IMG/VR virus record: IMGVR_UViG_2522572021_000010
DNA from: a virus
Taxonomy: Duplodnaviria; Heunggongvirae; Uroviricota; Caudoviricetes
DNA: 26,675 nucleotides
Direction: 5' to 3' (one strand)
The notes below the pieces were generated by a model. It was not told the origin of the DNA. It saw only the letters and a list, made by a program, of their open reading frames with translations, and made no database searches. Shown piece by piece: positions 1 to 26,675 of this stretch. How positions within the stretch are numbered: the first letter of the stretch is position 1; each line of letters starts with the position of its first letter. The translations under genes were made by a program, and so were the position numbers.

Positions 1-1316
1 TCACGAGCCATAACCCAACTCCTTCAAATACCCTGCCATCTCAACTTCCAGCTTCGCCAGTTCCACCTTCAGTTGCTCACGCTCTGCTCGCACCGCCACC
101 AGGTCAATCTCATCCTCTTCTTCAAAGGTATCGACATAGCGCGGAATATTGAGGTTGTAATCGTTGTCCTGAATTTCCTTCAGGCTGGCAAGATAGGCGT
201 ATTTCTCGACGTTATCGCCATCACGGTAGGTCTTGACGATTTTCTTAATGTTTTCTTCGCTAAGCTGGTTCTGGTTTTTACCTGCCTTGAATTCACGGCT
301 GGCATCGATAAACAGCACCTTGTCATCAACTTTCTACTTTTTGAAAATCAGAATCGCAGCCGGAATCCCCGTACCGTAGAACAGTTTTTCCGGCAGACCA
401 ATTACCGCATCCAGCAAATTTTCGTCGATCAGTTTCTGGCGAATTTTACCTTCGCTGGAGCCACGGAAAAGCACACCGTGTGGCACAACTACGCCCATAC
501 GGCCAGTTCCCGGTTTCAGGGTTTCGATCATATGCGAGATAAAAGCGTAATCTCCTTTAGTCTTCGGCGGTACACCGCGACGAAAACGGCCAAACTTATC
601 GTTCTCGGCCTCGTCATGGCCCCACTTATCGAGGCTGAACGGTGGGTTAGCGGTCACGATATCAAACAGCATCAGGTCGCCATTTTTATCGAGCAGCTTC
701 GGGTTACGAATGGTATCGCCCCACTCGATTTTATGGTTGTCTTCCCCGTGCAGGAACATATTCATTTTCGCCAGCGACCACGTAGAACCGATCGCTTCCT
801 GACCGAACAAGGCATAGTTACGACTATCATGCCCGGAGACAATTTTACGCCCACACTTCATCAATAATGAACCGGAACCACAGGCTGGATCGCAGATGGT
901 ATCACCCGGTTGCGGATCGAGCAGTTCTGCAATCAGGTCCGAAACTTCCGGCGGGGTATAGAACTCCCCGGCTTTCTGCCCACCGCTGGCGGCAAAGTTT
1001 TTGATCAGGTATTCGTAAGCATTGCCGATAACGTCCAGCGTACCGACACGACTCGGCTTCAGGTTGAGATCTTCACCGGCGAAGTCTTCCAGTAGCTGAC
1101 GCAGTATGGTGTTTTTCTGTTTTTCTTCGCCAAGACGATCGGTGTTAAACGAAATATCCTGGAACACGCTTTTCCCGGCATCTTTCAGTTTGGTTCCGTT
1201 GGCTTCTTCGATTGCATGCAGAGCCTGATCGATACGCTCACCGTTACCCAGCTCATGGCGGCGTTCGTACAGCGCATAAAAGCTGGCACTTTTTGGCAGT
1301 ACAAAACGCTCGTTGG
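1..1316 (-). pseudogene. hsdM: Type I restriction-modification N6-adenine DNA methyltransferase subunit (HsdM), disrupted
   Basis: Two same-frame minus-strand ORFs (334-1167 and 1-318) carry gamma-class N6-adenine methyltransferase motifs DPACGSG and NPPF. They are separated by an in-frame TAG at 334-336. The frame stays open upstream to 1316, where it runs into the IS inverted repeat without a plausible start, so the N-terminus is missing. Confidence 0.75.
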
Positions 1317-1370
1317 TGAACCGCCCCGGGAATCCTGGAGACTAAACTTCCTGAGAAAGAGGTAAACAGG

Positions 1371-1697
1371 ATGACTAAAAATACTCGTTTTTCCCCTGAA
1401 GTCCGTCAACGGGCAGTCCGTATGGTTCTGGAAAGTCAGGGCGAATATGACTCACAATGGGCGACAATTTGTTCCATTGCTCCAAAGATTGGCTGTACGC
1501 CGGAGACTCTGCGTGTCTGGGTTCGCCAGCATGAGCGGGATACCGGGGGCGGTGATGGAGGGCTCACCACCGCTGAACGTCAGCGTCTGAAAGAGCTGGA
1601 GCGTGAAAATCGTGAACTGCGCCGCAGTAACGATATCCTTCGCCAGGCTTCCGCTTATTTTGCGAAGGCGGAGTTCGACCGCCTCTGGAAAAAATGA
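1371..1697 (+). CDS. IS3-family transposase OrfA (helix-turn-helix, leucine-zipper part)
   Basis: 108 aa ORF starting [16 protein letters not shown]; coiled-coil segment [13 protein letters not shown] typical of IS3 OrfA; ends in AAAAAATGA overlapping orfB. Confidence 0.9.
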
Positions 1698-2584
1698 TGC
1701 CACTGCTGGATAAGCTGCGTGAGCAGTACGGGGTCGGACCGCTATGCAGCGAACTGCATATTGCCCCGTCAACGTATTACCACTGTCAGCAACAGCGACA
1801 TCATCCGGATAAACGCAGTGCCCGTGCGCAGCGCGATGACTGGCTGAAGAAAGAGATACAGCGCGTATACGATGAAAATCACAAGGTATACGGTGTGCGT
1901 AAAGTCTGGCGTCAGTTGTTACGGGAAGGTATCAGAGTGGCCAGATGCACTGTGGCACGTCTCATGGCGGTTATGGGACTTGCCGGTGTTCTCCGGGGTA
2001 AAAAGGTCCGTACGACCATCAGCCGGAAAGCCGTTGCCGCAGGCGACCGCGTAAACCGTCAGTTCGTGGCAGAACGACCTGACCAGCTGTGGGTGGCTGA
2101 TTTTACTTACGTCAGCACATGGCAGGGCTTCGTCTATGTGGCGTTCATCATTGATGTGTTTGCCGGATACATTGTGGGGTGGCGGGTCTCATCGTCCATG
2201 GAGACGACATTCGTGCTGGATGCACTGGAGCAGGCGTTATGGGCCCGTCGACCGTCCGGCACGGTCCATCACAGTGATAAAGGTTCTCAGTATGTATCGC
2301 TGGCCTACACACAGCGGCTTAAGGAAGCCGGATTACTGGCATCAACAGGAAGTACAGGCGACTCGTATGACAACGCGATGGCGGAGAGCATCAATGGTCT
2401 TTACAAAGCGGAGGTAATACACCGTAAGAGCTGGAAAAACCGTGCAGAAGTGGAACTGGCCACACTCACGTGGGTGGACTGGTATAACAATCGACGATTG
2501 CTGGAAAGGCTGGGCCATACTCCTCCGGCAGAAGCAGAAAAAGCTTATTATGCTTCCATCGGAAACGATGATCTGGCAGCCTGA
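1694..2584 (+). CDS. IS3-family transposase OrfB (DDE integrase domain), probably expressed as OrfAB fusion by -1 frameshift
   Basis: 296 aa ORF in -1 frame relative to orfA, overlapping at ATGA; rve-type catalytic region (WVADFTYV ... HSDKGSQY ... DNAMAES). Confidence 0.9.
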
Positions 2585-2630
2585 GTTCACAGATAAAACA
2601 CTCTCCAGGAAACCCGGGGCGGTTCAGTGA

Positions 2631-2837
2631 TGGAGGGACGTTCGAGACAATATTGAGCGCCGTGCTTATGAAATTGCACTGGCATCACTGGAAGCAGAGC
2701 CAGTAGCATGGATGCATGTAAATAACGGCATCGGAATACCAGCAATAACAAGGAGTAAAGAGGTTGCAGAGAGTTGGTTATCAAAAGGCTGGTATGTCCA
2801 ACCCTTGCATCTAGCCCAGCCTGCATCAAAGCTATAG
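2631..2837 (+). pseudogene. Orphan 3' end of an unidentified plus-strand gene, truncated at the IS junction
   Basis: Open frame from just after a TGA at 2628-2630 to TAG at 2835-2837 (...RRAYEIALASLEAEPVAWMHVNNGIGIPAITRSKEVAESWLSKGWYVQPLHLAQPASKL), with no credible start; followed by an intrinsic terminator. Family not recognised. Confidence 0.3.
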
Positions 2838-14539: not shown

Positions 14540-16525
14540 ATGAGTACCACAACACGAAAATTTAAAACCATTATCACTGATACTGGTGCCAAAAAATTAG
14601 CTCAGGCAGCCGCGCCAGGTGGTAATCCTGTCCGCCTGACTCACATGGCCGTGGGCGACGGTGGCGGCACGTTGCCCACACCAGACAGTAAGCAGACCCG
14701 TCTGGTGCATGAGGTGTGGCGACATACTGTTAATCGCGTCATCCTGGACGCAACACATCAGAACCGCATTATTGCGGAGCTGGTTATTCCTCCTGAAACG
14801 GGCGGATTCTGGATCCGGGAAATTGGTGTATTTGATGAGCACGGCGATTTGATCGCGGTGGGCAATACTGCCGAAAGTTACAAGCCAGCCGTTGCCAAAG
14901 GATCCGGACGTGCACAAACATTTCGCACCATTCTGACCGTATCCAGCACTGCCACCGTGGCGCTTACCGTGGATAACACCATGGTTATGGCCACAGTGGA
15001 TTACGTGAATGACAAACTGAAAGAACATGAACAGTCACGACGTCACCCGGACGCCTCGCTGACCGCAAAAGGCTTTGTTCAACTCAGTAGCGCCACCAAC
15101 AGCACGTCTGAAGCACTGGCCGCAACGCCGAAAGCGGTCAAGGCAGCCTATGACCTTGCTAACGGGAAATATACCGCACAGGACGCCACTACAGCGCGAA
15201 AAGGTCTTGTCCAGCTCAGTAGTGCCACCAACAGCACGTCTGAAACGCTCGCCGCAACACCAAAAGCGGTAAAGGCCGCGTATGATCTTGCTAACGCAAA
15301 ATATACCGCTCAGGACGCCACGACGGCACAAAAAGGGATTGTCCAGCTCAGTAGTGCCACCAACAGCACGTCTGAAACACTGGCCGCGACATCGAAAGCG
15401 GTTAAGGCAGTAATGGATGAAACAAATAAGAAAGCCCCATTAAACAGCCCGGCGCTGACCGGAACGCCAACAACACCAACTGCGCGACAGGGAACGAATA
15501 ATACCCAAATCGCAAGCACGGCTTTCGTTATGGCTGCGATTGCCGCCCTTGTAGATTCGTCACCTGATGCACTGAACACGCTGAACGAGCTGGCTGCGGC
15601 GCTGGGCAACGACCCGAATTTTGCGACCACCATGACTAACGCGCTTGCGGGTAAGCAACCGAAAGATGCCACCCTGACGGCGCTGGCCGGGCTTGCTACT
15701 GCGGCAGACAGGTTTCCGTATTTTACGGGGAATGATGTCGCCAGCCTGGCAACTCTGACAAAAGTCGGGCGGGATATTCTTGCGAAATCGACCGTTGCCG
15801 CCGTTATCGAATACCTCGGTTTACGAGAACTCGGCACAAGCGGGGAGAAAATACCGTTACTCAGTACAGCGAATACCTGGACCAATCGACAAACATTCAG
15901 CGGTGGCCTTTCTGGGGAACTGTCCGGCAATGCCGCTACTGCAACAAAGCTGAAAACAGCACGAAAAATTGCTGGAGTTGGTTTTGATGGTTCTAGCGAT
16001 ATTTCAATTAGTGCCAAAAATGTCAATGCATTTGCACTCCGACAAACAGGTAATACTGTTAATGGTGATACATCCGTTGGATGGAATTGGGATAGTGGTG
16101 CATATAACGCCCTGATTGGTGGTGCATCTGTATTAATTCTTCACTTTAATATAAATGCTGGTAGCTGTCCTGCCGTACAATTCCGTGTGAATTATAAAAA
16201 TGGTGGCATTTCCTACAGGTCGGCTCGTGATGGTTATGGGTTTGAATTAGGTTGGTCAGATTTCTATACCACGACACGAAAACCTTCAGCGGGAGATGTT
16301 GGTGCATATACGCAGGCAGAATGTAACTCAAGGTTTATTACAGGTATTCGCCTTGGCGGTCTGTCATCTGTTCAGACATGGAATGGTCCCGGCTGGTCTG
16401 ACAGGTCAGGTTATGTCGTTACGGGTTCAGTTAACGGAAACCGTGATGAATTAATTGATACAACACAGGCAAGGCCAATTCAGTATTGCATTAATGGGAC
16501 GTGGTATAACGCGGGGAGTATTTAA
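14540..16525 (+). CDS. H: Tail fibre protein (P2 gpH-like); constant N-terminal part plus currently expressed variable C-terminal segment
   Basis: 661 aa; three tandem 44-aa repeats; a recombination site at 15804-15829 separates the constant part from the C-terminal receptor-binding segment, which ends ...RPIQYCINGTWYNAGSI. Confidence 0.9.
   Translation: MSTTTRKFKTIITDTGAKKLAQAAAPGGNPVRLTHMAVGDGGGTLPTPDSKQTRLVHEVWRHTVNRVILDATHQNRIIAELVIPPETGGFWIREIGVFDEHGDLIAVGNTAESYKPAVAKGSGRAQTFRTILTVSSTATVALTVDNTMVMATVDYVNDKLKEHEQSRRHPDASLTAKGFVQLSSATNSTSEALAATPKAVKAAYDLANGKYTAQDATTARKGLVQLSSATNSTSETLAATPKAVKAAYDLANAKYTAQDATTAQKGIVQLSSATNSTSETLAATSKAVKAVMDETNKKAPLNSPALTGTPTTPTARQGTNNTQIASTAFVMAAIAALVDSSPDALNTLNELAAALGNDPNFATTMTNALAGKQPKDATLTALAGLATAADRFPYFTGNDVASLATLTKVGRDILAKSTVAAVIEYLGLRELGTSGEKIPLLSTANTWTNRQTFSGGLSGELSGNAATATKLKTARKIAGVGFDGSSDISISAKNVNAFALRQTGNTVNGDTSVGWNWDSGAYNALIGGASVLILHFNINAGSCPAVQFRVNYKNGGISYRSARDGYGFELGWSDFYTTTRKPSAGDVGAYTQAECNSRFITGIRLGGLSSVQTWNGPGWSDRSGYVVTGSVNGNRDELIDTTQARPIQYCINGTWYNAGSI
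15071..15412 (+). repeat. Three tandem 132-bp coding repeats inside H (phage tail-fibre repeat)
   Basis: Units begin at 15071, 15203 and 15335, each encoding G[FLI]VQLSSATNSTSE.LAAT.KAVKA.YDLAN.KYTAQDATTA.K; near-identical at the DNA level. Confidence 0.85.
15804..15829. repeat. Left invertase crossover site (gix/pix-like), inside H
   Basis: TTATCGAATACCTCGGTTTACGAGAA; 21 of 26 positions match the reverse complement of the site at 18482-18507, including an identical 12-bp ACCTCGGTTTAC core. Confidence 0.7.
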
Positions 16526-16527
16526 CG

Positions 16528-17061
16528 ATGATGCACTTAAAAAACATTACTGCTGGCAACCCTAAAACAAAAGAGCAATACCAGCTAACAAAGCAATTTA
16601 ACATCAAATGGCTTTATTCAGATGATGGAAAAAACTGGTATGAGGAACAAAAGAATTTCCAGCCAGACACTTTGAAAATGGTCTATGACCATAACGGCGT
16701 TATTATTTGTATTGAAAAGGATGTTTCAGCAATTAATCCGGAAGGCGCAAGCGTCGTTGAATTACCTGATATTACAGCAAATCGCCGGGCTGATATTTCG
16801 GGGAAATGGATGTTCAAAGATGGCGTAGTGATAAAGCGAACTTATACCGAGGAAGAGCAGAGACAACAAGCGGAAAATGAAAAGCAAAGCCTGTTGCAAC
16901 TTGTCAGGGATAAAACCCAGCTATGGGACTCACAGCTACGGCTGGGCATCATTTCCGACGAGAATAAGCAGAAATTAACCGAGTGGATGCTCTTTGCGCA
17001 GAAAGTCGAATCTACAGACACCTCCAGCCTGCCAGTAACGTTTCCCGAACAACCAGAATGA
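16528..17061 (+). CDS. Tail fibre assembly chaperone (gpG/Tfa-like), paired with the current fibre C-terminus
   Basis: 177 aa directly after H; clear paralogue of the minus-strand ORF at 17090-17617 ([22 protein letters not shown] versus [22 protein letters not shown]). Confidence 0.8.
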   Translation: MMHLKNITAGNPKTKEQYQLTKQFNIKWLYSDDGKNWYEEQKNFQPDTLKMVYDHNGVIICIEKDVSAINPEGASVVELPDITANRRADISGKWMFKDGVVIKRTYTEEEQRQQAENEKQSLLQLVRDKTQLWDSQLRLGIISDENKQKLTEWMLFAQKVESTDTSSLPVTFPEQPE

Positions 17062-17089
17062 GAGAAGGCCCGATATCGGGCCTTAATTT

Positions 17090-17617
17090 TTACTCAGGCT
17101 TTTGTGGCCATTCGGGATTTGCTGTATCCACACGGCTGACCAGAACGCTGTAGCGTTCCCATGACTCCAGTCGTGTGCGTTCCTCATCCGTCGCCATATT
17201 CAGCCTGACAGCGCGTTCCAGTGGCTGAATAACGCTTTCAGCTTCAGAAAGCAACGCGACCTTTTGTGATTCGGCCTGTTGTTGCTGTTCGTCTGCTGTA
17301 TAAATCCGCTTAACCACAGTTCCGTCCTTAAACATCCACTTCCCTGAATCATCGGCACGACGATTGGCTGTTATATCTGGAATCTCAACGACACTAAAGC
17401 CTTCGGGATTAAGCGTTGAGGCATCTTTGGTTATGGCAACAATAATATTATTTTCGTCGTATACAATCTTTATGGTGTCGTCCTGAAAGTTATTTACTTC
17501 CTCATACCAGTTTTTACCGTCTTCGGACCATAACCAGATAACATCAAAATTCTTTGTTAGCTGATATTGTTCTTTTGTTTTTGGATTTCCGGACTTAATA
17601 TTTTTTAAATGCTGCAT
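17090..17617 (-). CDS. Alternative tail fibre assembly chaperone (Tfa'), inverted orientation
   Basis: 175 aa paralogue of the plus-strand tfa, immediately downstream of the alternative fibre segment on the minus strand. Confidence 0.8.
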
Positions 17618-17620
17618 AAT

Positions 17621-18499
17621 TTACACCTGTGCGACGTTATACCATGTGCCATTGATGTATTTTTGTATTGGTCTGAAGATGGCTTCATCATCGCCATCTA
17701 CTTCACCAATGATTCTTAATCCGGTAATTGCGTGTCCGGCTTTTTCATAACGACCACCACGCGCCATCAATTGAACAACACGCGTACCCAGGCGAACATC
17801 TTTTACATAGCGTGAATCAAAATTCCCCCAGTTGCTGGGCTGTATCTGACCGTTAACAGAAAATATTACCGAGTTATCTGTATTTCGCTGGCTATAGAAA
17901 TGCCATCCTGCCTCATCGCCTAACTCTGCAACTACTGGACGGGTTGAAGCACCCCATAAATTAAACATTGCATTCTTTGTGGAGTTGTTGGAGCTGGATA
18001 GCGTGAATTTTTTACCATCCCCGGCCTGAATATTTTTAAAAGCAATAGCCACTCCATTCTGAAAGCGGAATACACGCTGACTATTAGCATAAACATCCAG
18101 AATACCGTCTCCATTCTGTTTAAATCCGGTGTCATTATCACCAAGAACAATAGAGCTACCACCTAACGCATTCGTCGAACCAACTCCAAGACTGCCATTA
18201 ATGACAGCATTAACAAGAATATTTAGTGCATCCCATTTCAGCGTCATCAGGTCTTTTGTTGTGGTGCTCTGGCGGCTTCTCCATTTGAAATATTCATTGC
18301 CGTTGTCGCCTGTTTCAAACCACATGTATGAATCAGTGTCACCATCGGCATCATTTTTAAATCCAATCTTCGCCCAGTCAGTATTTCGAATCCAGGCAAG
18401 GATTGAGTCATTTTCAAAAGTAAGCCCACCGGACAAGGTATCGCCATTTTTTTGCACGGCGTTACCAGCCCTGTTTACCGTTTCCTGTAAACCGAGGTT
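17621..18499 (-). CDS. Promoterless alternative tail-fibre C-terminal segment (Sv'), to be fused to H after inversion
   Basis: Minus-strand frame open from the crossover site to 17621. Ends ...FRPIQKYINGTWYNVAQV, parallel to the H C-terminus. No independent start with a ribosome-binding site; the frame is in phase with the H constant region across the crossover. Confidence 0.7.
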   Translation of the reverse strand, partial: NLGLQETVNRAGNAVQKNGDTLSGGLTFENDSILAWIRNTDWAKIGFKNDADGDTDSYMWFETGDNGNEYFKWRSRQSTTTKDLMTLKWDALNILVNAVINGSLGVGSTNALGGSSIVLGDNDTGFKQNGDGILDVYANSQRVFRFQNGVAIAFKNIQAGDGKKFTLSSSNNSTKNAMFNLWGASTRPVVAELGDEAGWHFYSQRNTDNSVIFSVNGQIQPSNWGNFDSRYVKDVRLGTRVVQLMARGGRYEKAGHAITGLRIIGEVDGDDEAIFRPIQKYINGTWYNVAQV

Positions 18500-18507
18500 T
18501 TAAATAA
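18482..18507. repeat. Right invertase crossover site (gix/pix-like)
   Basis: TTCCTGTAAACCGAGGTTTTAAATAA, an inverted copy of the site at 15804-15829; lies 54 bp upstream of the invertase start. Confidence 0.7.
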
Positions 18508-18561
18508 TGGCCGTTTCTGGCCTGCATGGCATGATTTGCGCTTTTGGACGGGAGATTCAGT

Positions 18562-19161
18562 GTGCTGATTGGCTATGTAAGGGTATCAACAAATGACCAG
18601 AATACAGACCTGCAACGAAACGCTCTTGTTTGTGCAGGATGTGAACAAATATTTGAAGATAAATTAAGCGGGACAAAGACAGACCGACCGGGATTAAAAC
18701 GCGCTTTAAAGCGCCTTCAAAAAGGTGACACGCTGGTTGTCTGGAAACTGGATCGCCTCGGGCGAAGCATGAAACATCTGATTTCTCTCGTCGGGGAACT
18801 ACGGGAGCGAGGGATTAATTTTCGCAGTCTGACCGACAGCATAGACACATCTTCTCCAATGGGGCGTTTTTTCTTCCACGTGATGGGTGCCCTGGCTGAA
18901 ATGGAACGTGAATTAATTGTTGAACGTACACTGGCCGGGCTGGCGGCAGCGCGCGCAAGGGGGCGCACAGGCGGACGTCGACCGAAGCTGACAAAAGAAC
19001 AGCATGAGCAAATAGCAAGGCTAATCAAAAACGGGCACGACAGAAAACAACTGGCAATAATTTACGGCATTGGCACATCGACGATTTATCGTTATCACCC
19101 TGTAGGCGATATACAGACTGAAGAAACAACCGGGCAGACTCAGGAAAATGAAAACCGCTAA
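18562..19161 (+). CDS. pin: Serine DNA invertase, Hin/Gin/Pin/Cin family
   Basis: GTG start after GGACGGGAG; N-terminus LIGYVRVSTNDQNTDLQRNAL with the catalytic Ser; C-terminal helix-turn-helix (GTSTIYRY). Near-identical over most of its length to the e14 Pin sequence as remembered. Confidence 0.85.
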   Translation: MLIGYVRVSTNDQNTDLQRNALVCAGCEQIFEDKLSGTKTDRPGLKRALKRLQKGDTLVVWKLDRLGRSMKHLISLVGELRERGINFRSLTDSIDTSSPMGRFFFHVMGALAEMERELIVERTLAGLAAARARGRTGGRRPKLTKEQHEQIARLIKNGHDRKQLAIIYGIGTSTIYRYHPVGDIQTEETTGQTQENENR

Positions 19162-19180
19162 TCTGACCATTAGCGGTTTT
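19151..19180. terminator. Bidirectional hairpin between convergent pin and U
   Basis: AAAACCGCTAAT (19151-19162), loop CTGACC, ATTAGCGGTTTT (19169-19180); an A/T run on each side allows termination from both strands. Confidence 0.45.
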
Positions 19181-19189
19181 TGTGTTAAA

Positions 19190-19684
19190 TCAGAACAGCC
19201 CTTTAACTGAACTGGCCGCGCTGTTAAGAGATGATGTCACCTTATCTTTGAATCCGGACAGCATATCACTGAACGATGAGGATTGCAGGCGCTCCCGCAA
19301 ATCCTCATCACAGCGTTCAAGAGTCAGTGAAAATTCTATCTTTTTCGCCTTACCGTAGCGATCAAACTCGGAGCGGGTCGTATTCGTTTCAGTCAGGACA
19401 TACATGCCGTAAATCTGCCCGACGCCATCAATCAAAGGCCAGGGTCGTCCTGTATACGCCTGCGTGGTCAGCAGCGACAGCGACACTTCGCCACCTGTAA
19501 TTTCAGGATAAAGCACACCAGAAAGAACGATGCGATCATCACCTGCACCGATATACTGCCAGCTTGCTGAACGGTTAACGCGTTCATTTTTCACATGCCG
19601 CCAGCTTTTGTTTTGCTGTAACTGCTGATGCGGCAGCGTGCGCAGCTCAAAAACAAACATGCCGTAGATCATCATCATGGCCAT
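19190..19684 (-). CDS. U: Tail protein U (P2 gpU homologue)
   Basis: 164 aa, immediately downstream of the tape measure gene on the minus strand; size and position match P2 U. Confidence 0.8.
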   Translation of the reverse strand: MAMMMIYGMFVFELRTLPHQQLQQNKSWRHVKNERVNRSASWQYIGAGDDRIVLSGVLYPEITGGEVSLSLLTTQAYTGRPWPLIDGVGQIYGMYVLTETNTTRSEFDRYGKAKKIEFSLTLERCDEDLRERLQSSSFSDMLSGFKDKVTSSLNSAASSVKGLF

Positions 19685-19690
19685 GACTCC

Positions 19691-22534
19691 TCAATCTTTA
19701 TCGTAAAAACTGCCACGCCCGGCACGGGCGCGCCGTTCCATTTCTGCCCTGACCATTTCACCGACCAGTTTCGCCAGTTCGCGGGGATTCTGCGTAACAA
19801 CGTTATGCAGATGAACATGAATTTCACCACCAAATCCGGAGGCAACAGGCTCCCGGTTACGGGAAGTTACAGGAACTGATGCCACTGGAGATCGTATAGC
19901 CTCCGCCACCGGGCGGGAGCTGGCCGCAACAACAGGGACCAGCGCCGGAGGCAGCGGAGCCGGGACCACGGGTGTGATATTAATTGCGGGGGCAGGCTTA
20001 CTGACCTGCGCAATCTTCCGCTCCTGCCACTCCCCACGAACAGCAAGTGCTCGGGGCAGGTTTTTAAAGACAATATCGCCGGGGCCAATGCGTTTTTTCG
20101 TCTCCTCAACCAGCTTACCTGTGTTATCAGCAATTTTGCTGAGTCTGCGCAGCGTACCGGTATTGCTGTCTGTGAGCGGTTTATTGTCTTTGGGGTTATC
20201 ACCTCCGGTGCCATTGCCATTTTCCACAGGCTTCGGCGGATTGATTTTCGCCAGGTCCCCCTGAAGCAAGGCAACCTTGTCCTGAAGAATGGCCGCACGC
20301 TGTGCGTCTTCGATTTTCTTGCGCGCCCTTTCCGCTTCATCCGGAAGCACACCAAGCTTTTCAAGTATCCACGCCAGCGTATCCAGCAACATTTTTGCAG
20401 GTGTCAGAACAAGTTGTAACGCACCGCCAAGAACGTTACCGAATATCTCGCCAGCACTGGTACATTTATCCAGAGTTTCCTTGCTGGACTCCATCGGTGA
20501 CAGCAGCGATTTAAACCAGTTAAACACCTGGCTGATCCCACTCCCGATTGCGTCAAAAACAGGACCAAACCGTTCAAAGGTTTCGCGCAACGGGGTCAGC
20601 CTTTCCATAATCCCGCTGAACACCCAGGCAAAAAATGCCCTGATGGGATCCCAGTATTTCCAGATAAGAACGGCAGCTCCGGCAAGCGCAGCCACGATAA
20701 GACCAACCGGACTGAACAACGCCCCGATAGCGCCTCCCAGTAAAGAAACGGAACCCGTCACCATTCCCCATAGTGCTGGCAGAACCCTGACAGCATTCAT
20801 TGATCCGGTCAGGAGGGAAAAACCAAGACGCAGTTTTGCCAGCGGGCCAGCAAGCACACCAATAGCCAGCGACAACGAGCCAACCGTTGCAGTCATTGCC
20901 AGCAGTGCACCGCCTGCAATCAGTAGCTGGCGCGTCAGTGCGGGATGGGCCTGCGCCAGCGCCGTCACCTTTGATACCACACGCGTGAGCCACTGCGTGA
21001 CAGAACGCAGCGGACCGTCAATCAGATCTGCAATGCGGATGCGCAACCCTTCCCATGCACTGCTGAGTGATTTCAGATCGCCGTCAAGGTTGTTGGCCAT
21101 AACCTTTGCCGTGCGTTCAGCCTCACCGCGCGCGCCTTCAAGTTCTTTTCTCAGTTTGGGTAAGGAGCCGTCACCTGCCGCATCAACGAGGGCCATAAAT
21201 GATGTGAAAGCCTCTTCTCCGGCAATGTCCTTAAAGAACGATACCCGGTCAACTTCCCCGTATTTGCGGGTAGCTTTATAAAGGTCAGCCAGCACATCCT
21301 CCATCGGGCGCATTTTGCCCCCGGCATCCGAGACAGACACGCCAAGCTCTTTCAGCGCCTCTGCTGCCGCCTTTGGCGGTGATGCCAGACGAGCCAGGCT
21401 GGCACGCATTGCCGTACCAGCATCACTCCCCCTGATACCCATATTCGCCAGCACGCCCGCCATCGCTGCGGCCTGCTCCAGCGATATTCCCAGCTTACCC
21501 GCCACCGGACCTGCATATTTCATGGTTTCACCCAGTGCGCGAAGGTCAGTGTTGGTACGGGTAAACGCTGCGGTGAGTGTGTCGCCGACCCGGTCCATCT
21601 GGTCAGCAGAAAGACCGAACTGCGTCAGAATATTTGAGCCAATATCCGCCGTCTCACCGAGGTCCATACCGCCAGCCGTTGCCATGCTCAGTACGCCAGG
21701 GAGCGCAGCCTGAATGGCCTGTGGTGTAAAGCCAGCCATTGCAAGAAATGCCTGTCCACTGGCGGCATCGCCTGCGGTGAACTGCGTTTCAGAGCCAAGT
21801 TTTAACGCCTGCTCACGCAGCGCCTTAAACTGCGGGCTGTTCTGGTCGATTCGCGTCAGTGCCTGAACGCGGGACATCTCTTTGCCGAACCCGATCGCAG
21901 GCTGCAAAAAACGCCCGGCAGCATAGCCGCCCGCCGCTGCCGCACCAATTGCCAGCGCACCACCTGTTTTCAGTTTTCCCGCTGTTTCCTGCGCGCGCGA
22001 ATACCGCTCACGCGCCCGTGTTACACGCGCAAGCGCCTGCCGTTCGCGTTCAAGCTGGTTGTTGTACTGTTCGGTGCGTCTGATGGCCTGCTGGATGGTG
22101 TTATCGCTGCCTGTCAGGGAAATGCCGTGGCGTTTCAGCTCTCCGCCAAGCTCCCGCATTTTCTGAATTTCCCGTGTGCGCGATTCATTCAGGCGTTCAA
22201 GCCGGGTGCTTAACTGCTGCATCAGCTTTTGTTGTTTTTCGCTGAGCACTGTACCCGTGCGTTGTAACTGATTAAGGGCGTTAAGCTGGCGTCGTGCTTT
22301 CACGATGCCCGCATCCGCTTTACTGACAGCGTCACGGGCGCGCTCAAATGATCGCGCCTGACGCTCGAGATTTTTGATCGCCCCCTGCGTTCGCTGGATG
22401 GAGTCACCAAACTGCCCCATCAGGCGGCGGGCGTTTTCGGCAGGCCGGGTCAGCCTGTCAACGGCGCTGAAAGCGACCCGGATATCAAGAGTCTTCATTG
22501 TCTGCATTCCCGCTACGAAGTGCCGCCCGCTCAC
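19691..22534 (-). CDS. T: Tail tape measure protein (P2 gpT homologue)
   Basis: 947 aa; N-terminal coiled-coil region, central hydrophobic/Gly-Ala-rich segments; position between E/E' and U. Confidence 0.85.
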   Translation of the reverse strand: MSGRHFVAGMQTMKTLDIRVAFSAVDRLTRPAENARRLMGQFGDSIQRTQGAIKNLERQARSFERARDAVSKADAGIVKARRQLNALNQLQRTGTVLSEKQQKLMQQLSTRLERLNESRTREIQKMRELGGELKRHGISLTGSDNTIQQAIRRTEQYNNQLERERQALARVTRARERYSRAQETAGKLKTGGALAIGAAAAGGYAAGRFLQPAIGFGKEMSRVQALTRIDQNSPQFKALREQALKLGSETQFTAGDAASGQAFLAMAGFTPQAIQAALPGVLSMATAGGMDLGETADIGSNILTQFGLSADQMDRVGDTLTAAFTRTNTDLRALGETMKYAGPVAGKLGISLEQAAAMAGVLANMGIRGSDAGTAMRASLARLASPPKAAAEALKELGVSVSDAGGKMRPMEDVLADLYKATRKYGEVDRVSFFKDIAGEEAFTSFMALVDAAGDGSLPKLRKELEGARGEAERTAKVMANNLDGDLKSLSSAWEGLRIRIADLIDGPLRSVTQWLTRVVSKVTALAQAHPALTRQLLIAGGALLAMTATVGSLSLAIGVLAGPLAKLRLGFSLLTGSMNAVRVLPALWGMVTGSVSLLGGAIGALFSPVGLIVAALAGAAVLIWKYWDPIRAFFAWVFSGIMERLTPLRETFERFGPVFDAIGSGISQVFNWFKSLLSPMESSKETLDKCTSAGEIFGNVLGGALQLVLTPAKMLLDTLAWILEKLGVLPDEAERARKKIEDAQRAAILQDKVALLQGDLAKINPPKPVENGNGTGGDNPKDNKPLTDSNTGTLRRLSKIADNTGKLVEETKKRIGPGDIVFKNLPRALAVRGEWQERKIAQVSKPAPAINITPVVPAPLPPALVPVVAASSRPVAEAIRSPVASVPVTSRNREPVASGFGGEIHVHLHNVVTQNPRELAKLVGEMVRAEMERRARAGRGSFYDKD

Positions 22535-23023
22535 GCCAGCTAACCACTTCGCCGGGCGTCATCATGAAGATTTCGGCGGGCGACCAGTTAAAAATGGCGG
22601 CAATATCCGCCACCAGATCTTCGATGTGCTCAAAGCACACCAGGGTGATTACGCTGCCGTCTCCTGCACGCTCTTCGCGCCAGAGTCTGGCTCGCTCATA
22701 AAATTTACAGCCACAGCGCACAACTGAATAAAATCGCGTGACGACATTTTTTTAATCATCACTTCATCCAGTCGTGGCGAGGTCACGCGAGGCAACAGCG
22801 TGAACATGGTATCCGCTTTCAGATTCAGCACATCAGACAGCGACAGACCACGCAGGGATCCAGCCTGCTCAATAGCCCCGGTGATCTCCACATACGTGAT
22901 TTTTTCGCCACCACGCTCAATTGGTCGGGTCAGTTTTACGCCACGTTCGACAGCCATATCCTCAACTGCCGTCACATTATCCGCCACGGTGTTATTCCGG
23001 GTTTCAGTATCGATGTCTTTCAT
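22485..23023 (-). CDS. E+E' fusion chaperone produced by programmed -1 frameshift
   Basis: The -1 frame opens directly after a TAA just before the A7 run and stays open to 22485, overlapping the T start. The predicted junction is ...MIKK then NVVTRFYSVV... Confidence 0.6.
22649..23023 (-). CDS. E: Tail assembly chaperone E (P2 gpE homologue)
   Basis: 124 aa ORF between the tail tube and tape measure genes; contains an A7 slippery run at 22747-22753; LDRPIERG-like motif (LTRPIERGGEKITYVEI). Confidence 0.8.
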   Translation of the reverse strand: MKDIDTETRNNTVADNVTAVEDMAVERGVKLTRPIERGGEKITYVEITGAIEQAGSLRGLSLSDVLNLKADTMFTLLPRVTSPRLDEVMIKKMSSRDFIQLCAVAVNFMSEPDSGAKSVQETAA

Positions 23024-23078
23024 CTGTTGTCTCCTTTTCAGTCAGAGGCGACGCACTGCGCCGCCAGCATATTACTTA

Positions 23079-23591
23079 TCAGCCAAGCCCAAGCGCGGAA
23101 CGGATGCGATCGGGCACAATGTCCTTGCCGTCCTTCCGGTAAATGAAGTTCAGCAGGTCAATCTCCCACAACGGGCGATCGTTAACACTCAGCTTGTAGT
23201 AGGTGTTTTTAATGGCGTAAGTGTGTGATGTGGCTTCGCCCTGTTTGGCTTCCCCCATATCAATTTCCGTCACACGTCCGCGCATTTCGACTTCATACAG
23301 GTCGCTTTCTGCATCGGTGTAGTATTCACCCGCAAAACGCAGCAGCGTGCCGTCAATCGTGCCGCCATACTTAAGGAACAGCTCACGAACTGCGCCCCCC
23401 ATGACAAAGCTCGCATCAAGCGCGGAGTCGTCCAGACCGAGATCAATACTTACCGCACCCATCATGCCACCACCCCGGTAGCTGTCGGTTTTGCGCGTCA
23501 GCTTAGGCAGAGTGACGGACGTCACCTTACCCACTTCGTTTTCACCATCCACAAACAGCGTAAAAAAGCGAAGATGTTTTGGCACAGCCAT
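23079..23591 (-). CDS. FII: Tail tube protein (P2 gpFII homologue)
   Basis: 170 aa; start overlaps the FI stop (ATGA); size matches P2 FII (about 172 aa). Confidence 0.85.
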   Translation of the reverse strand: MAVPKHLRFFTLFVDGENEVGKVTSVTLPKLTRKTDSYRGGGMMGAVSIDLGLDDSALDASFVMGGAVRELFLKYGGTIDGTLLRFAGEYYTDAESDLYEVEMRGRVTEIDMGEAKQGEATSHTYAIKNTYYKLSVNDRPLWEIDLLNFIYRKDGKDIVPDRIRSALGLG

Positions 23592-24775
23592 CAGGCACCT
23601 CCCAGCACCGCAAATGCGGGTTCAAAGTATTCATCAGTAAACGTCTGGTAAAGCTCCATGTCTTCCAGTGGCGGAACGGGCGTATATTTGTAGCGAATAC
23701 GCACACGTCCCTGACGTAAATCCGTGGTGCTGTTATCCACCACGTCATACCAGCACTCCGCGCCAATCAGTTTCCCGGCAGTCACCAGTGAATCCAGTTT
23801 TGCCCTGATGGCACTGATAACATCCTTCACATTCGCAGGCGTCAGTGGACTGTCGATGGTTTCAAACTGCGCTTCCGCAATTGAATCAGCCAGCACCTGT
23901 GCGGTTCGGGTATACACCTCAAAGATGTAGGCGTTCGTTTCCGGTGTGCGGTTACCCCAGAAGCGGAACCCGTTGCGACGAATAATGGTCGTGATTTCTT
24001 TGTTGTTGAGGCTGTTGGCATCGCTGTCTTCGGCCTGCAACGACCAGAACACATGCCTGGACATTCCCAGCACATTTTTAACCGGAACGTTGGACAGCGA
24101 TTTGTGCCAGCCCTGCTCATGGTCAATGTACGCACGAAGGCCGCACGCATAAGCAGGCGCGGGGAACGTTTCGTTTTTGCCACTTTTCGGGTTGTAGGCG
24201 ATGAAGTCAGGCCATAAGAGCATCACCTCACGTTCGTTGAATTTCTGGCGGTAGGTAATCGCCTCAGCCATCGTGTTACAACCATGACATGTGGCATACA
24301 CAAACGCGCGCAGTTTACCTGCAATCACGCACAGGGATTTTGTTACCGCCTCCGTGTCCAGCTCCGGCGCGGCCAGAATACGCGGACGGTATCCGATGCT
24401 TTCATCCTGCTCTGCAACAAGCAGCGCATACATCCCCGTATAGCTGCCGTCATCCTCAGAACCACCGATAACCAGTTGATCCTGCGTCTTTCCGTCTTCT
24501 TCTTTGTGTTCAGCCACGCGAACGACGATCACCTTTGTGCTCACCTGGTCTGCGATGGCCTTAAGCGCACGATAAAGCGTCCCCGTTGTTCCGCATTTTC
24601 CCAGCACGTCATTGACGCGGGTCAGCAGTGTGGGCTTGTTCAGCGGGAACAGCTCCGCGTCCGCATCATCCGCCGTTGCCACGATACCGATAACGCTGGA
24701 ATCAACATCGTTAATCGCTGTTACCAGGTCGGTATTTTCCGTAACACGGGCACCATGAAAACGAGTTTCACTCAT
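23591..24775 (-). CDS. FI: Contractile tail sheath protein (P2 gpFI homologue)
   Basis: 394 aa, against about 396 aa for P2 FI; first gene of the minus-strand tail block. Confidence 0.85.
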   Translation of the reverse strand: MSETRFHGARVTENTDLVTAINDVDSSVIGIVATADDADAELFPLNKPTLLTRVNDVLGKCGTTGTLYRALKAIADQVSTKVIVVRVAEHKEEDGKTQDQLVIGGSEDDGSYTGMYALLVAEQDESIGYRPRILAAPELDTEAVTKSLCVIAGKLRAFVYATCHGCNTMAEAITYRQKFNEREVMLLWPDFIAYNPKSGKNETFPAPAYACGLRAYIDHEQGWHKSLSNVPVKNVLGMSRHVFWSLQAEDSDANSLNNKEITTIIRRNGFRFWGNRTPETNAYIFEVYTRTAQVLADSIAEAQFETIDSPLTPANVKDVISAIRAKLDSLVTAGKLIGAECWYDVVDNSTTDLRQGRVRIRYKYTPVPPLEDMELYQTFTDEYFEPAFAVLGGA

Positions 24776-24932: not shown

Positions 24933-26042
24933 ATGACCGACACCACCATGCAATTGCTCAGCCAGGGCACAGACCCCGTAAAAATGCCGGATTTTGATAT
25001 TCTCGCGGAGGGTAAAACGCTGTCCGGCGTGGCAGAGCGCCTGATGAGCCTGTCGCTGACCGACAACCGGGGATTTGAGGCAGACCAGCTCACCATCACG
25101 CTGGATGATGCGGATGGTCAGTTGCAGCTACCGCCACGGGGCGCGCGCCTGACGGTTCTCATTGGCTGGAAAGGCGAACCGCTGACAGAAAAAGGGTCTT
25201 ACATTGTTGATGAAATCGCACACGAAGGACCGCCGGACAGGCTGACTGTTTCAGCCAGAAGCGCAGATTTCCGGGATGAATTTAACGTTAAACGTGAGGT
25301 GTCCTGGCATGATGTGACCGTTGAGCGTGTGGTATCCGCCATCGCTCATCGGTACGGTCTGAAACCGCAAATCAGCGAAATGCTGATGGATATCGAAATC
25401 GACCACGCCGACCAGACCGAAGAAAGTGACATGTCCTTCCTTACGCGCATGGCGGAAATGCTGGGCGCAATCACTACGGTAAAAAGCGGTAATCTGTTAT
25501 TCATCATGCCCGGTGGTGGCGTGAACGCACAGGGCCAGCCGTTGCCATCGTTCGCCATCACGCGCAGCAGCGGCGATCGCCATCAGTTCCGCATTGCTGA
25601 CCGCGAGGCGTATACGGGGGTACGCGCCTACTGGCTTGATCTTAATTACGGGAAAAAGAAAAAAGTCAGCGTGAAACGCCGCAAACCGCCAAAACCGAAA
25701 AAAGAGAAAAGCAGCAGCCGTGAAGGTGATTATATGGAAGGCGCGGAAGGCAATGTGTTTGTGTTACGCAAGACTTATCAGAACGAGCAGGCAGCAAGAC
25801 GCGCAGCGGCGGCAAAGTGGCAACAACTACAACGCGGAGCCGCATCATTCTCCATCACGCTGGCACGTGGACGAGCAGAACTCTACCCCGAAATGCATGG
25901 CACGGTAACAGGATTTAAAAGCGAGATTGATAATCAGGACTGGATTATTGCAAAAGCCGAGCACACCATTGATAACAGCGGCTTTACCACGCAGCTTGAG
26001 CTTGAGGCAAAAATCCCGGAATGGATAGCGGAAACAGAGTGA
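24933..26042 (+). CDS. D: Tail protein D (late control gene D homologue)
   Basis: Start set at the ATG at 24933 after GGGAGGGAG (the ORF track starts upstream at 24801); about 369 aa; Lys-rich internal patch (KKKKVSVKRRKPPKPKKEK); followed by ogr. Confidence 0.8.
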   Translation: MTDTTMQLLSQGTDPVKMPDFDILAEGKTLSGVAERLMSLSLTDNRGFEADQLTITLDDADGQLQLPPRGARLTVLIGWKGEPLTEKGSYIVDEIAHEGPPDRLTVSARSADFRDEFNVKREVSWHDVTVERVVSAIAHRYGLKPQISEMLMDIEIDHADQTEESDMSFLTRMAEMLGAITTVKSGNLLFIMPGGGVNAQGQPLPSFAITRSSGDRHQFRIADREAYTGVRAYWLDLNYGKKKKVSVKRRKPPKPKKEKSSSREGDYMEGAEGNVFVLRKTYQNEQAARRAAAAKWQQLQRGAASFSITLARGRAELYPEMHGTVTGFKSEIDNQDWIIAKAEHTIDNSGFTTQLELEAKIPEWIAETE

Positions 26043-26534: not shown

Positions 26535-26675
26535 ATGTCGCAAAAATCGCTTACGGCCATCACGTTCTGCGTGACGGTAATCCTCATCATCTGGATGCTG
26601 CACGGTTCGCTGTGTGAAATACGGATGAGCTTCTGGGGAGCGGAGTTTGCGGCGTTCTTACAGTGTAAGCAGTAA
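26535..26675 (+). CDS. Hok/Gef-family type I toxin (small membrane peptide)
   Basis: 46-aa ORF (too short for the ORF track) after AAGGAG: MSQKSLTAITFCVTVILIIWMLHGSLCEIR...AAFLQCKQ. Has the N-terminal transmembrane helix, the SLCEIR motif and the AAF C-terminal pattern of the Hok family; ends exactly at the window edge. Confidence 0.7.
   Translation: MSQKSLTAITFCVTVILIIWMLHGSLCEIRMSFWGAEFAAFLQCKQ

Follow-up and report, generated by a model that had tools for sequence, protein, structure and literature searches.

A Gin-type tail-fibre inversion switch, orthologous to Mu G and P1 C, in a P2-like prophage of Escherichia coli O145:H28

The window analyzed here, a stretch of 26,675 nucleotides, carries what we regard with high confidence as a switch of the Gin/Fis type in a Xuanwuvirus prophage, in which site-specific DNA inversion would set the tail-fibre specificity to either of two states. 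A 2680-bp segment (15816..18495) is bounded by two 26-bp gix-like sites in inverted orientation, one inside the tail-fibre gene H and the other just upstream of an intact serine invertase gene. Inside the segment lie two convergent pairs of fibre tip and assembly chaperone, and the exact flip of the segment is found in other genomes. From its sequence, the carrier is P2-like (Peduoviridae), belongs to the genus Xuanwuvirus and is a prophage of the P88-like kind in E. coli O145:H28. In RefSeq, the source region is annotated with the P2-type late gene set, namely Q, P, O, N, M, L, X, lysis genes, R, S, V, W, J, I, H, G, followed by FI, FII, E, T, U, D and ogr; the Pfam families GpU and GPD were matched in the window. 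DNA identity reaches 95% to Xuanwuvirus xv503458, and the invertible segment is 98.6% identical to that of phage P88_4B11.

The fibre gene H occupies 14540-16525 on the plus strand and in its current form encodes 661 aa. Its constant part (residues 1-425, 14540..15815, plus strand) lies outside the invertible segment and is transcribed from the late V-W-J-I-H operon. Pfam matches it to Phage_tail_fib at the N-terminus and, three times over, to the Phage_fiber_2 repeat, and it is unchanged between the flipped and unflipped members of the strain pairs described below. The current tip (residues 427-661, 15818..16525, plus strand) was assigned by sequence identity to the Mu S' (G-minus) type: over its final 165 aa the identity is 89% with the variable part of Mu S' and 88% with P1 Sv'. 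It is followed by a tail-fibre assembly chaperone (16528..17061, plus strand; Pfam Caudo_TAP, E=4.8e-36), an orthologue of Mu U' (97% identity, and 96% to P1 U').

The minus strand carries the second pair. The silent alternative chaperone (17090..17617; Caudo_TAP, E=2.5e-36) is an orthologue of Mu U, to which it is 97% identical; its identity to the plus-strand chaperone is 56%. The silent alternative fibre C-terminus (17621 to 18493 or 18496; Pfam Gp34_trimer) is about 290 aa long and has no start of its own. This frame runs uninterrupted from the crossover site onward; directly upstream of it, outside the segment, stands a TAA stop. This tip is of a diverged Mu S / P1 S (G-plus) type (55% identity to the P1 S C-terminus, 46% to Mu S), and the two tips are about 32% identical to each other over about 110 aa. 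Between the convergent chaperone genes lies a GC-rich hairpin (17065..17084; 8 pairs, 6 of them G-C, then a T-run), likely a terminator working in both directions, at which the late operon would end whichever way the segment lies. The gene content is thus as described in an earlier note on this DNA: a fibre tip and its chaperone on the plus strand, a paralogous chaperone and an alternative tip on the minus strand. The note's prediction that inversion would fuse about the first 425 residues of H to the other tip was borne out in silico: the flip keeps the frame and turns the 661-aa fibre into one open frame of 716 aa, made of H residues 1-426 and the alternative tip. In NU14 and 33E, both flipped, the annotation includes a 716-aa tail fibre protein containing this tip. 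A constant N-terminus outside, two convergent tip and chaperone pairs inside and a preserved frame are what is found in a cassette of the Mu G/P1 C type. The cassette is also more AT-rich than its flanks, as had been noticed: the GC content lies at 0.39-0.50 over roughly 15800-19400, against 0.53-0.62 on either side.

The left crossover site (gixL-like, 15804-15829, plus strand) reads TTATCGAATACCTCGGTTTACGAGAA, that is TTATCGAATACC-TC-GGTTTACGAGAA, with the central TC at 15816-15817. The right one (gixR-like, 18482-18507, plus strand) reads TTCCTGTAAACCGAGGTTTTAAATAA, that is TTCCTGTAAACC-GA-GGTTTTAAATAA, with the central GA at 18494-18495; its reverse complement is TTATTTAAAACCTCGGTTTACAGGAA. 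The earlier proposal rested on these two sites being inverted, sharing 21 of 26 positions and having an identical core, and site comparison bears out all three points. Non-inverted sites had been named as one result that would overturn it; the orientation is indeed inverted, and the identical 12-bp core is ACCTCGGTTTAC (15813-15824 at the left site). The half-sites are TTATCGAATACC / TTCTCGTAAACC on the left and TTATTTAAAACC / TTCCTGTAAACC on the right, with a central TC at both, so that each site has the composition of a Din-switch site: two imperfectly symmetric 12-bp half-sites around the same 2-bp core. At both sites the central dinucleotide forms positions 2-3 of a CTC Leu codon, in agreement with the codon phase noted before; H reads ...AVIEYLGLRE across the left site, and the minus-strand arm reads (stop)NLGLQETVNRA across the right one. 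Taken as a bare repeat, the pair is no more than moderately unlikely to arise by chance: a uniform base model predicts 0.04 such pairs per 4.8 kb and 1.4 per whole window. We judge the sites genuine because they match Mu gix (22/26 to gixL on the left, 24/26 to gixR on the right, in the alignment that had been suggested) and because natural flips occur at exactly these sites. No other gix-like site occurs in the whole window.

Directly to the right of the segment, a gene on the plus strand (18562..19161, GTG start) encodes a serine DNA invertase of 199 aa. This GTG, which matches the RefSeq annotation, is the start rather than the TTG at 18544. The protein is a small serine recombinase with an N-terminal catalytic domain (Pfam Resolvase PF00239, E=1.4e-50) and a C-terminal helix-turn-helix (HTH_7 PF02796, E=4e-13), as in Din invertases. 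The gene is intact, and the motif YVRVS puts the conserved catalytic Ser at residue 9. Mu Gin sequences from the PDB (4m6f and 3uj3) are matched at E=3e-100. The enzyme had been called Pin-like. An intact serine invertase is indeed present immediately downstream, but assignment to the e14 Pin subfamily was rejected: over residues 1-120 the identity is 118/120 with Mu Gin, 104/120 with e14 PinE and 99/120 with Cin. The proposed alignment to both Mu gin and e14 pin thus places the enzyme closer to Gin, and since its catalytic domain is nearest to Gin we classify it as Gin-type rather than Pin-type. The linker and DNA-binding domain (residues 121-185) are only 36/65 (55%) identical to Gin; among solved structures, the C-terminus is best matched by the Hin DNA-binding domain (PDB 1hcr). 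The invertase is a natural chimera, a Gin catalytic domain with a Hin-like DNA-binding domain, joined near nucleotide 360 of the gene. The hybrid possibly has an altered site selectivity. Inversion efficiency may differ from that of Mu, because the sites are imperfect (four mismatches to Mu gix on the left) and the DNA-binding domain is unlike that of Gin.

The 5' end of the invertase gene contains a presumed Fis-dependent recombinational enhancer (sis; 18580..18651, plus strand), recognized by sequence identity. In an alignment with P1 (55/72), it corresponds to the 72 bp that the P1 record annotates as the "enhancer of Cin-mediated C-segment inversion"; Mu gin has exactly the same letters here (72/72). 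An enhancer in cis in the 5' part of the invertase gene is typical of Din systems, and its binding by Fis is presumed. Similarity to Mu extends around the gene start: ahead of the start codon 73/86 positions are identical, and over the initial 158 bp of the gene 156/158. An inverted-repeat search also found a hairpin with a perfect 12-bp stem (19151..19180) between the convergent invertase and gpU genes, likely a bidirectional terminator.

The distribution of the two orientations was analyzed in complete E. coli genomes with a query coverage of at least 80%: 88 have the orientation of the window and 69 are flipped. When 15816..18495 is reverse-complemented, the sequence becomes 100.0% identical over 3701 bp to that of E. 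coli O145:NM FWSEC0002. UTI89 and NU14 are identical over 11,701 bp after flipping one interval whose ends lie inside the 12-bp core; the same holds, over the same length, for 32F4 and 33E. Phage P88_4B11 holds the segment in the orientation opposite to its flanks. Both orientations, with junctions at the crossover sites, are therefore found among genomes as in Din systems, and from this comparison between strains the switch evidently flips in nature. Inversion phase variation has been described in P2-like prophages of EPEC E2348/69 by sequencing, and PCR confirmation is reported for the four-variant locus (PMC4272514).

Three other readings were weighed against an active switch driven by the adjacent enzyme. 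The one that survives best, which we consider unlikely, is a relic: sites and gene would be intact, with no flipping now in O145:H28 RM12581/RM13514, for example through an unexpressed invertase in a decayed prophage, and the two orientations among genomes would be due to rare events of the past or to recombination with incoming phages. The loss of the whole early region and an IS3 at the border of the prophage fit such decay, and seven O145 relatives among the matches listed keep the orientation of the window. However, two O145 strains among the same matches, FWSEC0002 and RM11626-C1, are flipped at 99.7-100% identity. The invertase is identical to that of both strain pairs (WP_000905061.1 in UTI89, NU14, 32F4 and 33E); the members of these pairs differ by the flip alone across 11.7 kb, and the events are therefore very recent. 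The near-Mu state of the promoter-proximal region and of the gene start with its enhancer stretch also argues against decay of the switch, as does e14, a defective prophage that still flips in K-12 cultures (PMC4272514).

A quite improbable reading is that the segment is flipped in trans by another Din-family invertase, from a Mu-like, P1-like or e14-like element, the adjacent gene contributing little. Several related cassettes are common within one E. coli genome: for the switch-region query 15300-19000 the median number of matching places per genome is 2, with a maximum of 12. The right site differs little from Mu gixR even though the DNA-binding domain of the adjacent enzyme is not Gin-like. 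Gin, Cin, Pin and Hin can moreover replace one another. Against this, the adjacent gene is intact, encodes a protein 100% conserved in distant strains and in the free phage P88_4B11, and occupies the canonical place, containing the enhancer; the adjacent enzyme is thus the probable agent of flipping. Finally, it is hardly credible that the orientation differences stem from RecA-dependent recombination between inverted repeats or from assembly artefacts: the chaperone genes do form a longer inverted repeat within the segment (357 nt at 70% identity), but the breakpoints of both strain pairs lie outside it, in the 12-bp gix core, 12 bp are too short for efficient RecA recombination, and exactly these junctions are seen again in dozens of complete assemblies made independently.

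The preferred reading, inversion by the adjacent Gin-type enzyme, would proceed as follows. The invertase would be produced from the gene directly right of the segment, and its dimers would bind both 26-bp gix-like sites, the one inside H and the one upstream of its own gene. With host Fis on the enhancer in the 5' end of the gene, the invertase would synapse the sites, cut both at the central TC/GA dinucleotide via Ser9 and, after rotation and religation of the ends, leave the 2680 bp inverted. Din switches depend on host Fis and on negative supercoiling and are selective for inversion; for this one, dependence on Fis is presumed. Fibre residues 1-426, with their start codon and promoter, would remain fixed outside the segment, and would therefore be fused in frame to either of two C-termini, with the matching chaperone directly downstream. 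In the orientation sequenced, the Mu S'/U'-type pair would be expressed, giving the 661-aa fibre; in the inverted state, the diverged Mu S/P1 S-type tip and the U-type chaperone would be expressed, giving the 716-aa fibre. From the divergence of the tips and the identity of one of them to Mu S', we infer that the two fibres would confer different host ranges.

A host-range effect of the switch in the source strain is doubtful, because the prophage lacks its early region: in RM12581 it is devoid of integrase, immunity and replication genes. Instead, the portal gene of RM12581 has on its left IS3 and an island for type I restriction-modification, beyond which comes yecA, a host gene. It may be that RM12581 never produces virions, in which case the switch would have no host-range consequence there.

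This switch is a near copy of the textbook Mu G/P1 C system, is present in annotated phages and genomes, and is in that sense already known. It brings little new biology, and is a well-supported case of textbook bet-hedging in which a phage flips between two receptor-binding tips. Its description is of use for annotation: in RefSeq the invertase is no more than a "recombinase family protein", and the silent arm goes either as a truncated pseudogene or as a "hypothetical protein". It also bears on strain comparison: a 2.7-kb inversion at this place is an expected reversible difference among STEC or UPEC isolates that are identical in all else, not a structural divergence. The cassette and most of the invertase gene are common to Mu-like, P1-like and P2-like phages at 90-99% identity, which points to the exchange of a host-range module between unrelated families.

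Among the closest relatives are the other Xuanwuvirus members (phages 503458, P88 and P88_4B11; prophages of UTI89, NU14, SE11 and IHE3034). They have the same cassette at the same place with 95-99% DNA identity, an invertase that is identical or one residue off, and both orientations; there is no substantive difference, except that the window copy is in a prophage without early region. P2 shares the operon order V-W-J-I-H-G and the same kind of H N-terminal domain, but its only H-G pair is fixed, the cargo gene fun(Z) comes next, and P2 has neither an invertase nor a second arm. The earlier remark that the cassette sits where P2 has a fixed H-G pair holds for P2 itself; the arrangement is nevertheless standard in Xuanwuvirus and not unusual for P2-like phages. 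The FI-to-U tail operon adjoining the invertase gene has the opposite orientation in the window and is inverted relative to P2 throughout Xuanwuvirus. This 5.6-kb block could have been inverted once at a secondary site by the same invertase and then have become fixed, an idea we think very unlikely; if true, it would make Xuanwuvirus an example of an invertase permanently rearranging essential phage gene order.

The earlier note had placed the mechanism with Mu G, P1 C and e14 P. This is supported, with one amendment: judged by sequence, the cassette is the same module as Mu G and P1 C (90-97% identity), an orthologue beyond mere analogy. The e14 P segment of K-12 is likewise an invertible tip and chaperone segment next to a Din-family invertase in a defective prophage, but its backbone is lambdoid, its fibre and chaperone genes are stfP/tfaP and tfaE/stfE, and PinE is further from the window enzyme than Gin. 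The C segment of P1/P7, with Cin and cix, is homologous: DNA identity is about 90% over about 2.4 kb, chaperones are 96% and the alternative tip 55% identical, and the enhancer has the same position in the recombinase gene. It differs in that cin of P1 lies on the other side, in that the P1 segment is 4.2 kb with long internal inverted repeats, and in that Cin is 72% identical to the window invertase. The G segment of D108 is about 90% identical in DNA. Mu G has the same layout as the window, i.e. the constant fibre part, gixL, convergent S/U and U'/S', gixR, then the invertase, and the likeness is close in the chaperones (97%), one tip (S', 89%), the Gin catalytic domain (118/120) and the gene start (156/158). 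The window differs from Mu by its P2-like backbone, by a constant fibre part of the P2 H-type N-terminus with three 44-aa repeats, by two sites that form an imperfect inverted repeat, by an invertase linker and DNA-binding domain that is 55% identical to Gin and Hin-like, and by a second tip with 46% identity to Mu S.

The earlier note had read the DNA at positions 15804-19161 as an invertible, host-range-type tail-fibre cassette within a P2-like tail module. We rate this switch as real, the earlier interpretation as correct, and the phenomenon as already known. The two inverted 26-bp crossover sites lie at the positions originally proposed, the left at 15804-15829 (TTATCGAATACCTCGGTTTACGAGAA) and the right at 18482-18507 (TTCCTGTAAACCGAGGTTTTAAATAA). 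The left site agrees with the reverse complement of the right one at 21 of 26 positions, as had been claimed, and the two share a 12-bp core (ACCTCGGTTTAC). A repeat finder reported them as a 30-nt inverted pair with 80% complementarity. A uniform base model predicts 0.04 such pairs in the 4.8-kb region and 1.4 in the whole window, so that as a bare repeat the pair is only moderately unlikely to occur by chance. Identity to gix, the crossover site of phage Mu, is 22/26 for the left site and 24/26 for the right. The window has no other gix-like site; a multi-state shufflon using a third crossover site, as in an EPEC P2-like prophage, was rejected for this reason. The central dinucleotide (TC at 15816-17, GA at 18494-95) occupies positions 2-3 of a CTC leucine codon at both sites, and the identical codon phase that had been noted is thus verified.

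The segment contains two fibre tips and two chaperones. The tail-fibre gene H (14540-16525, 661 aa) encodes an N-terminal tail-collar domain of the P2 type as well as three Phage_fiber_2 repeats; its C-terminus, the variable fibre tip, lies within the segment on the plus strand, followed by a Caudo_TAP chaperone (16528-17061, plus strand). The minus strand carries the other chaperone (17090-17617), which shares 56% identity with the first, and an alternative fibre C-terminus (17621-18493) whose frame is open up to the crossover site. This silent tip has no start codon of its own at the crossover site, and a TAA stop is found just beyond the segment. A GC-rich hairpin (17065-17084) separates the convergent chaperone genes. 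A scan for a promoter serving the silent arm gave 4 promoter-like sites, compared to 5.9 expected from shuffled sequence, and hence no support. The AT-richness attributed to the cassette is also borne out, GC content being 0.39-0.50 over about 15800-19400 and 0.53-0.62 in the neighbouring phage genes. RefSeq names the silent arm (17621-18457, minus strand) differently between strains: in one orientation it is a "hypothetical protein" or a "phage tail fiber protein" starting from an internal GTG, in the other a pseudogene, "phage tail protein, incomplete, missing N-terminus". The constant part of H carries three tandem 132-nt repeats (15067-15462; 100%, 84% and 66% identity to the first copy), which encode the 44-aa Phage_fiber_2 repeats and are comparable to the repeat elements annotated in S of phage P1 (a0, a1, b1, b2).

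Natural flipping was examined by searching all complete E. coli genomes with window positions 15300-19000, either as is or with the segment reverse-complemented in silico. At a query coverage of at least 80%, 88 genomes contained the as-is query and 69 the flipped one. The flipped query matched O145:NM FWSEC0002 at 100.0% over 3701 bp in a single piece, and O145 RM11626-C1 at 99.7%. Some O145 matches of the as-is query that looked longer (3833 bp, not 3701 bp) had suggested copy-number variation of the 132-nt fibre repeat; this was rejected because RM12581 is 100% identical in one piece in a 25-kb search, the extra 132 bp coming from BLAST pieces joined across the tandem repeat. The decisive result is given by two near-identical E. 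coli strain pairs, UTI89/NU14 and 32F4/33E: reverse-complementing one interval leaves no base difference within either pair across the 11,701 bp fetched, and every interval that restores identity has both ends within the 12-bp core. In-frame fusion of H to the alternative tip had been predicted, and holds: reverse-complementing 15816-18495 in silico yields a single uninterrupted 716-aa fibre (...AVIEYLGLQETVNRAGNAVQKNGD...), and this same protein is the RefSeq tail fibre protein of the flipped strains NU14 and 33E. In phage P88_4B11 the segment is 98.6% identical and lies in the opposite orientation relative to its flanks, and the 199-aa invertase is identical in UTI89, NU14, 32F4, 33E and P88_4B11. 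Given these natural flips and the conserved enzyme, a dead switch is unlikely. RecA-type recombination between the chaperone genes, which form a longer repeat, is ruled out by the location of the breakpoints within the core.

The invertase gene (18562-19161) begins with a GTG at 18562, preceded by GGGAGA; RefSeq uses the same start and names the product only "recombinase family protein". For the invertase and the fibre parts, NCBIfam yielded only matches below the curated cut-offs and thus no informative family. The protein matches the sequences of Mu Gin crystal structures with E=3e-100, and its catalytic domain is identical to Mu Gin at 118/120 positions, compared to 104/120 for PinE of e14 and 99/120 for Cin of P1. 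A serine invertase downstream of the segment had thus been rightly recognized, but the label "Pin-like" was imprecise. Nucleotide identity to Mu gin drops abruptly past about nt 360 (near 18920), and the gene is a mosaic whose first roughly 360 nt are 92-100% identical to gin and whose remainder is about 50% identical. The linker and helix-turn-helix share 36/65 residues with Gin, and the solved structure they match best is the Hin DNA-binding domain. The enzyme is thus a Gin-type invertase whose DNA-binding domain has been swapped. Its C-terminus bears a 16-aa acidic tail absent from Gin, Cin and Pin. Within the gene, 72 bp (18580-18651) align to the annotated enhancer of the P1 record (cin +19 to +90), and are identical to Mu gin at 72/72 positions.

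For the sites, frame, enzyme, enhancer identity and natural flips observed here, we propose a mechanism drawn from sequence identity to Mu Gin, gix and the enhancer sis, and from established knowledge of the Mu system (summarised in PMC3575834). Invertase dimers would bind each site, and Fis, attached to the enhancer, would activate a synaptic tetramer. Ser9 would then cut both sites at the central dinucleotide, and one dimer pair would turn by 180 degrees before religation of the ends. Tip and chaperone would be swapped, with residues 1-426, the start codon and the late promoter remaining where they are. We infer that the reaction depends on Fis, that it is the work of the adjacent enzyme acting in cis and not of a related one in trans, and that the two fibres confer different host ranges.

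The invertase gene directly adjoins the FI-FII-E-E'-T-U operon (19190-24775, minus strand). In P2, the genes from FI to D make up a single operon that shares the strand of H; here this tail operon is turned round, which leaves D and ogr separated from it on the H strand (24933-26042, plus strand), with an intergenic gap of about 157 bp between them and the divergently oriented FI. The FI-FII-E-T-U block was considered as part of the switch and rejected, having no gix-like or other meaningful flanking inverted repeat. When the 3' end of the invertase gene was joined to a forward-oriented FI as a synthetic junction query, 0/5426 E. coli genomes covered both halves. The block is therefore fixed rather than switchable; the inverted gene order is also present in the related phages 503458 and P88_4B11, and represents a genus-level fixed rearrangement outside the switch.

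The source region is P2-like prophage DNA. A single uninterrupted 25-kb stretch of the window matches the chromosomes of E. coli O145:H28 RM12581 and RM13514 at 100% identity. Among classified phages, Xuanwuvirus xv503458 (95%) and Xuanwuvirus P88_4B11 come closest. The RM12581 prophage has no integrase, immunity or replication genes. On the left side of the portal gene (window 1-2640, corresponding to source chromosome 2369800-2384000) the early phage region is absent. Its place is taken by an IS3-family element (about 1371-2584) and a type I restriction-modification island in which IS elements break both hsdM and hsdR, and which also includes genes for DUF262, M48 peptidase and cold-shock-domain proteins; beyond it is the host gene yecA. 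This points either to loss of int/C/cox/B/A from the prophage by IS-mediated deletion, or to a decayed defence-cargo hotspot beside cos. On the right, ogr is followed by a hok/gef-family toxin gene (26535-26675), adjoined by a tRNA-Leu/Cys/Gly cluster which probably marks the attachment side. With the early genes missing, the switch may flip in RM12581 without ever altering virion host range, as in the defective prophage e14.

Literature searches on Xuanwuvirus and RM13514 yielded nothing specific to this cassette. Inversion phase variation in EPEC P2-like prophages has been shown by sequencing (Goldberg et al., PMC4272514), with the four variants at one of those loci confirmed by PCR. The cassette is carried by many sequenced strains of E. 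coli, UTI89, SE11 and IHE3034 among them. Phage P2 does have, as the earlier note said, a fixed H-G pair, followed by fun(Z), but the cassette is the normal state of the genus Xuanwuvirus. Most of the segment is about 90% identical in DNA to P1, P7, D108 and SfMu, and the cassette is one and the same module as Mu G and the P1 C segment, more than an analogue. Of the two chaperones, that on the plus strand shares 97% identity with Mu U' and that on the minus strand 97% with Mu U. Across its last 165 aa the expressed fibre tip reaches 89% identity to Mu S'; for the silent tip, identity is 55% with P1 S and 46% with Mu S. By these identities of tips and chaperones, the orientation as sequenced corresponds to Mu G(-).
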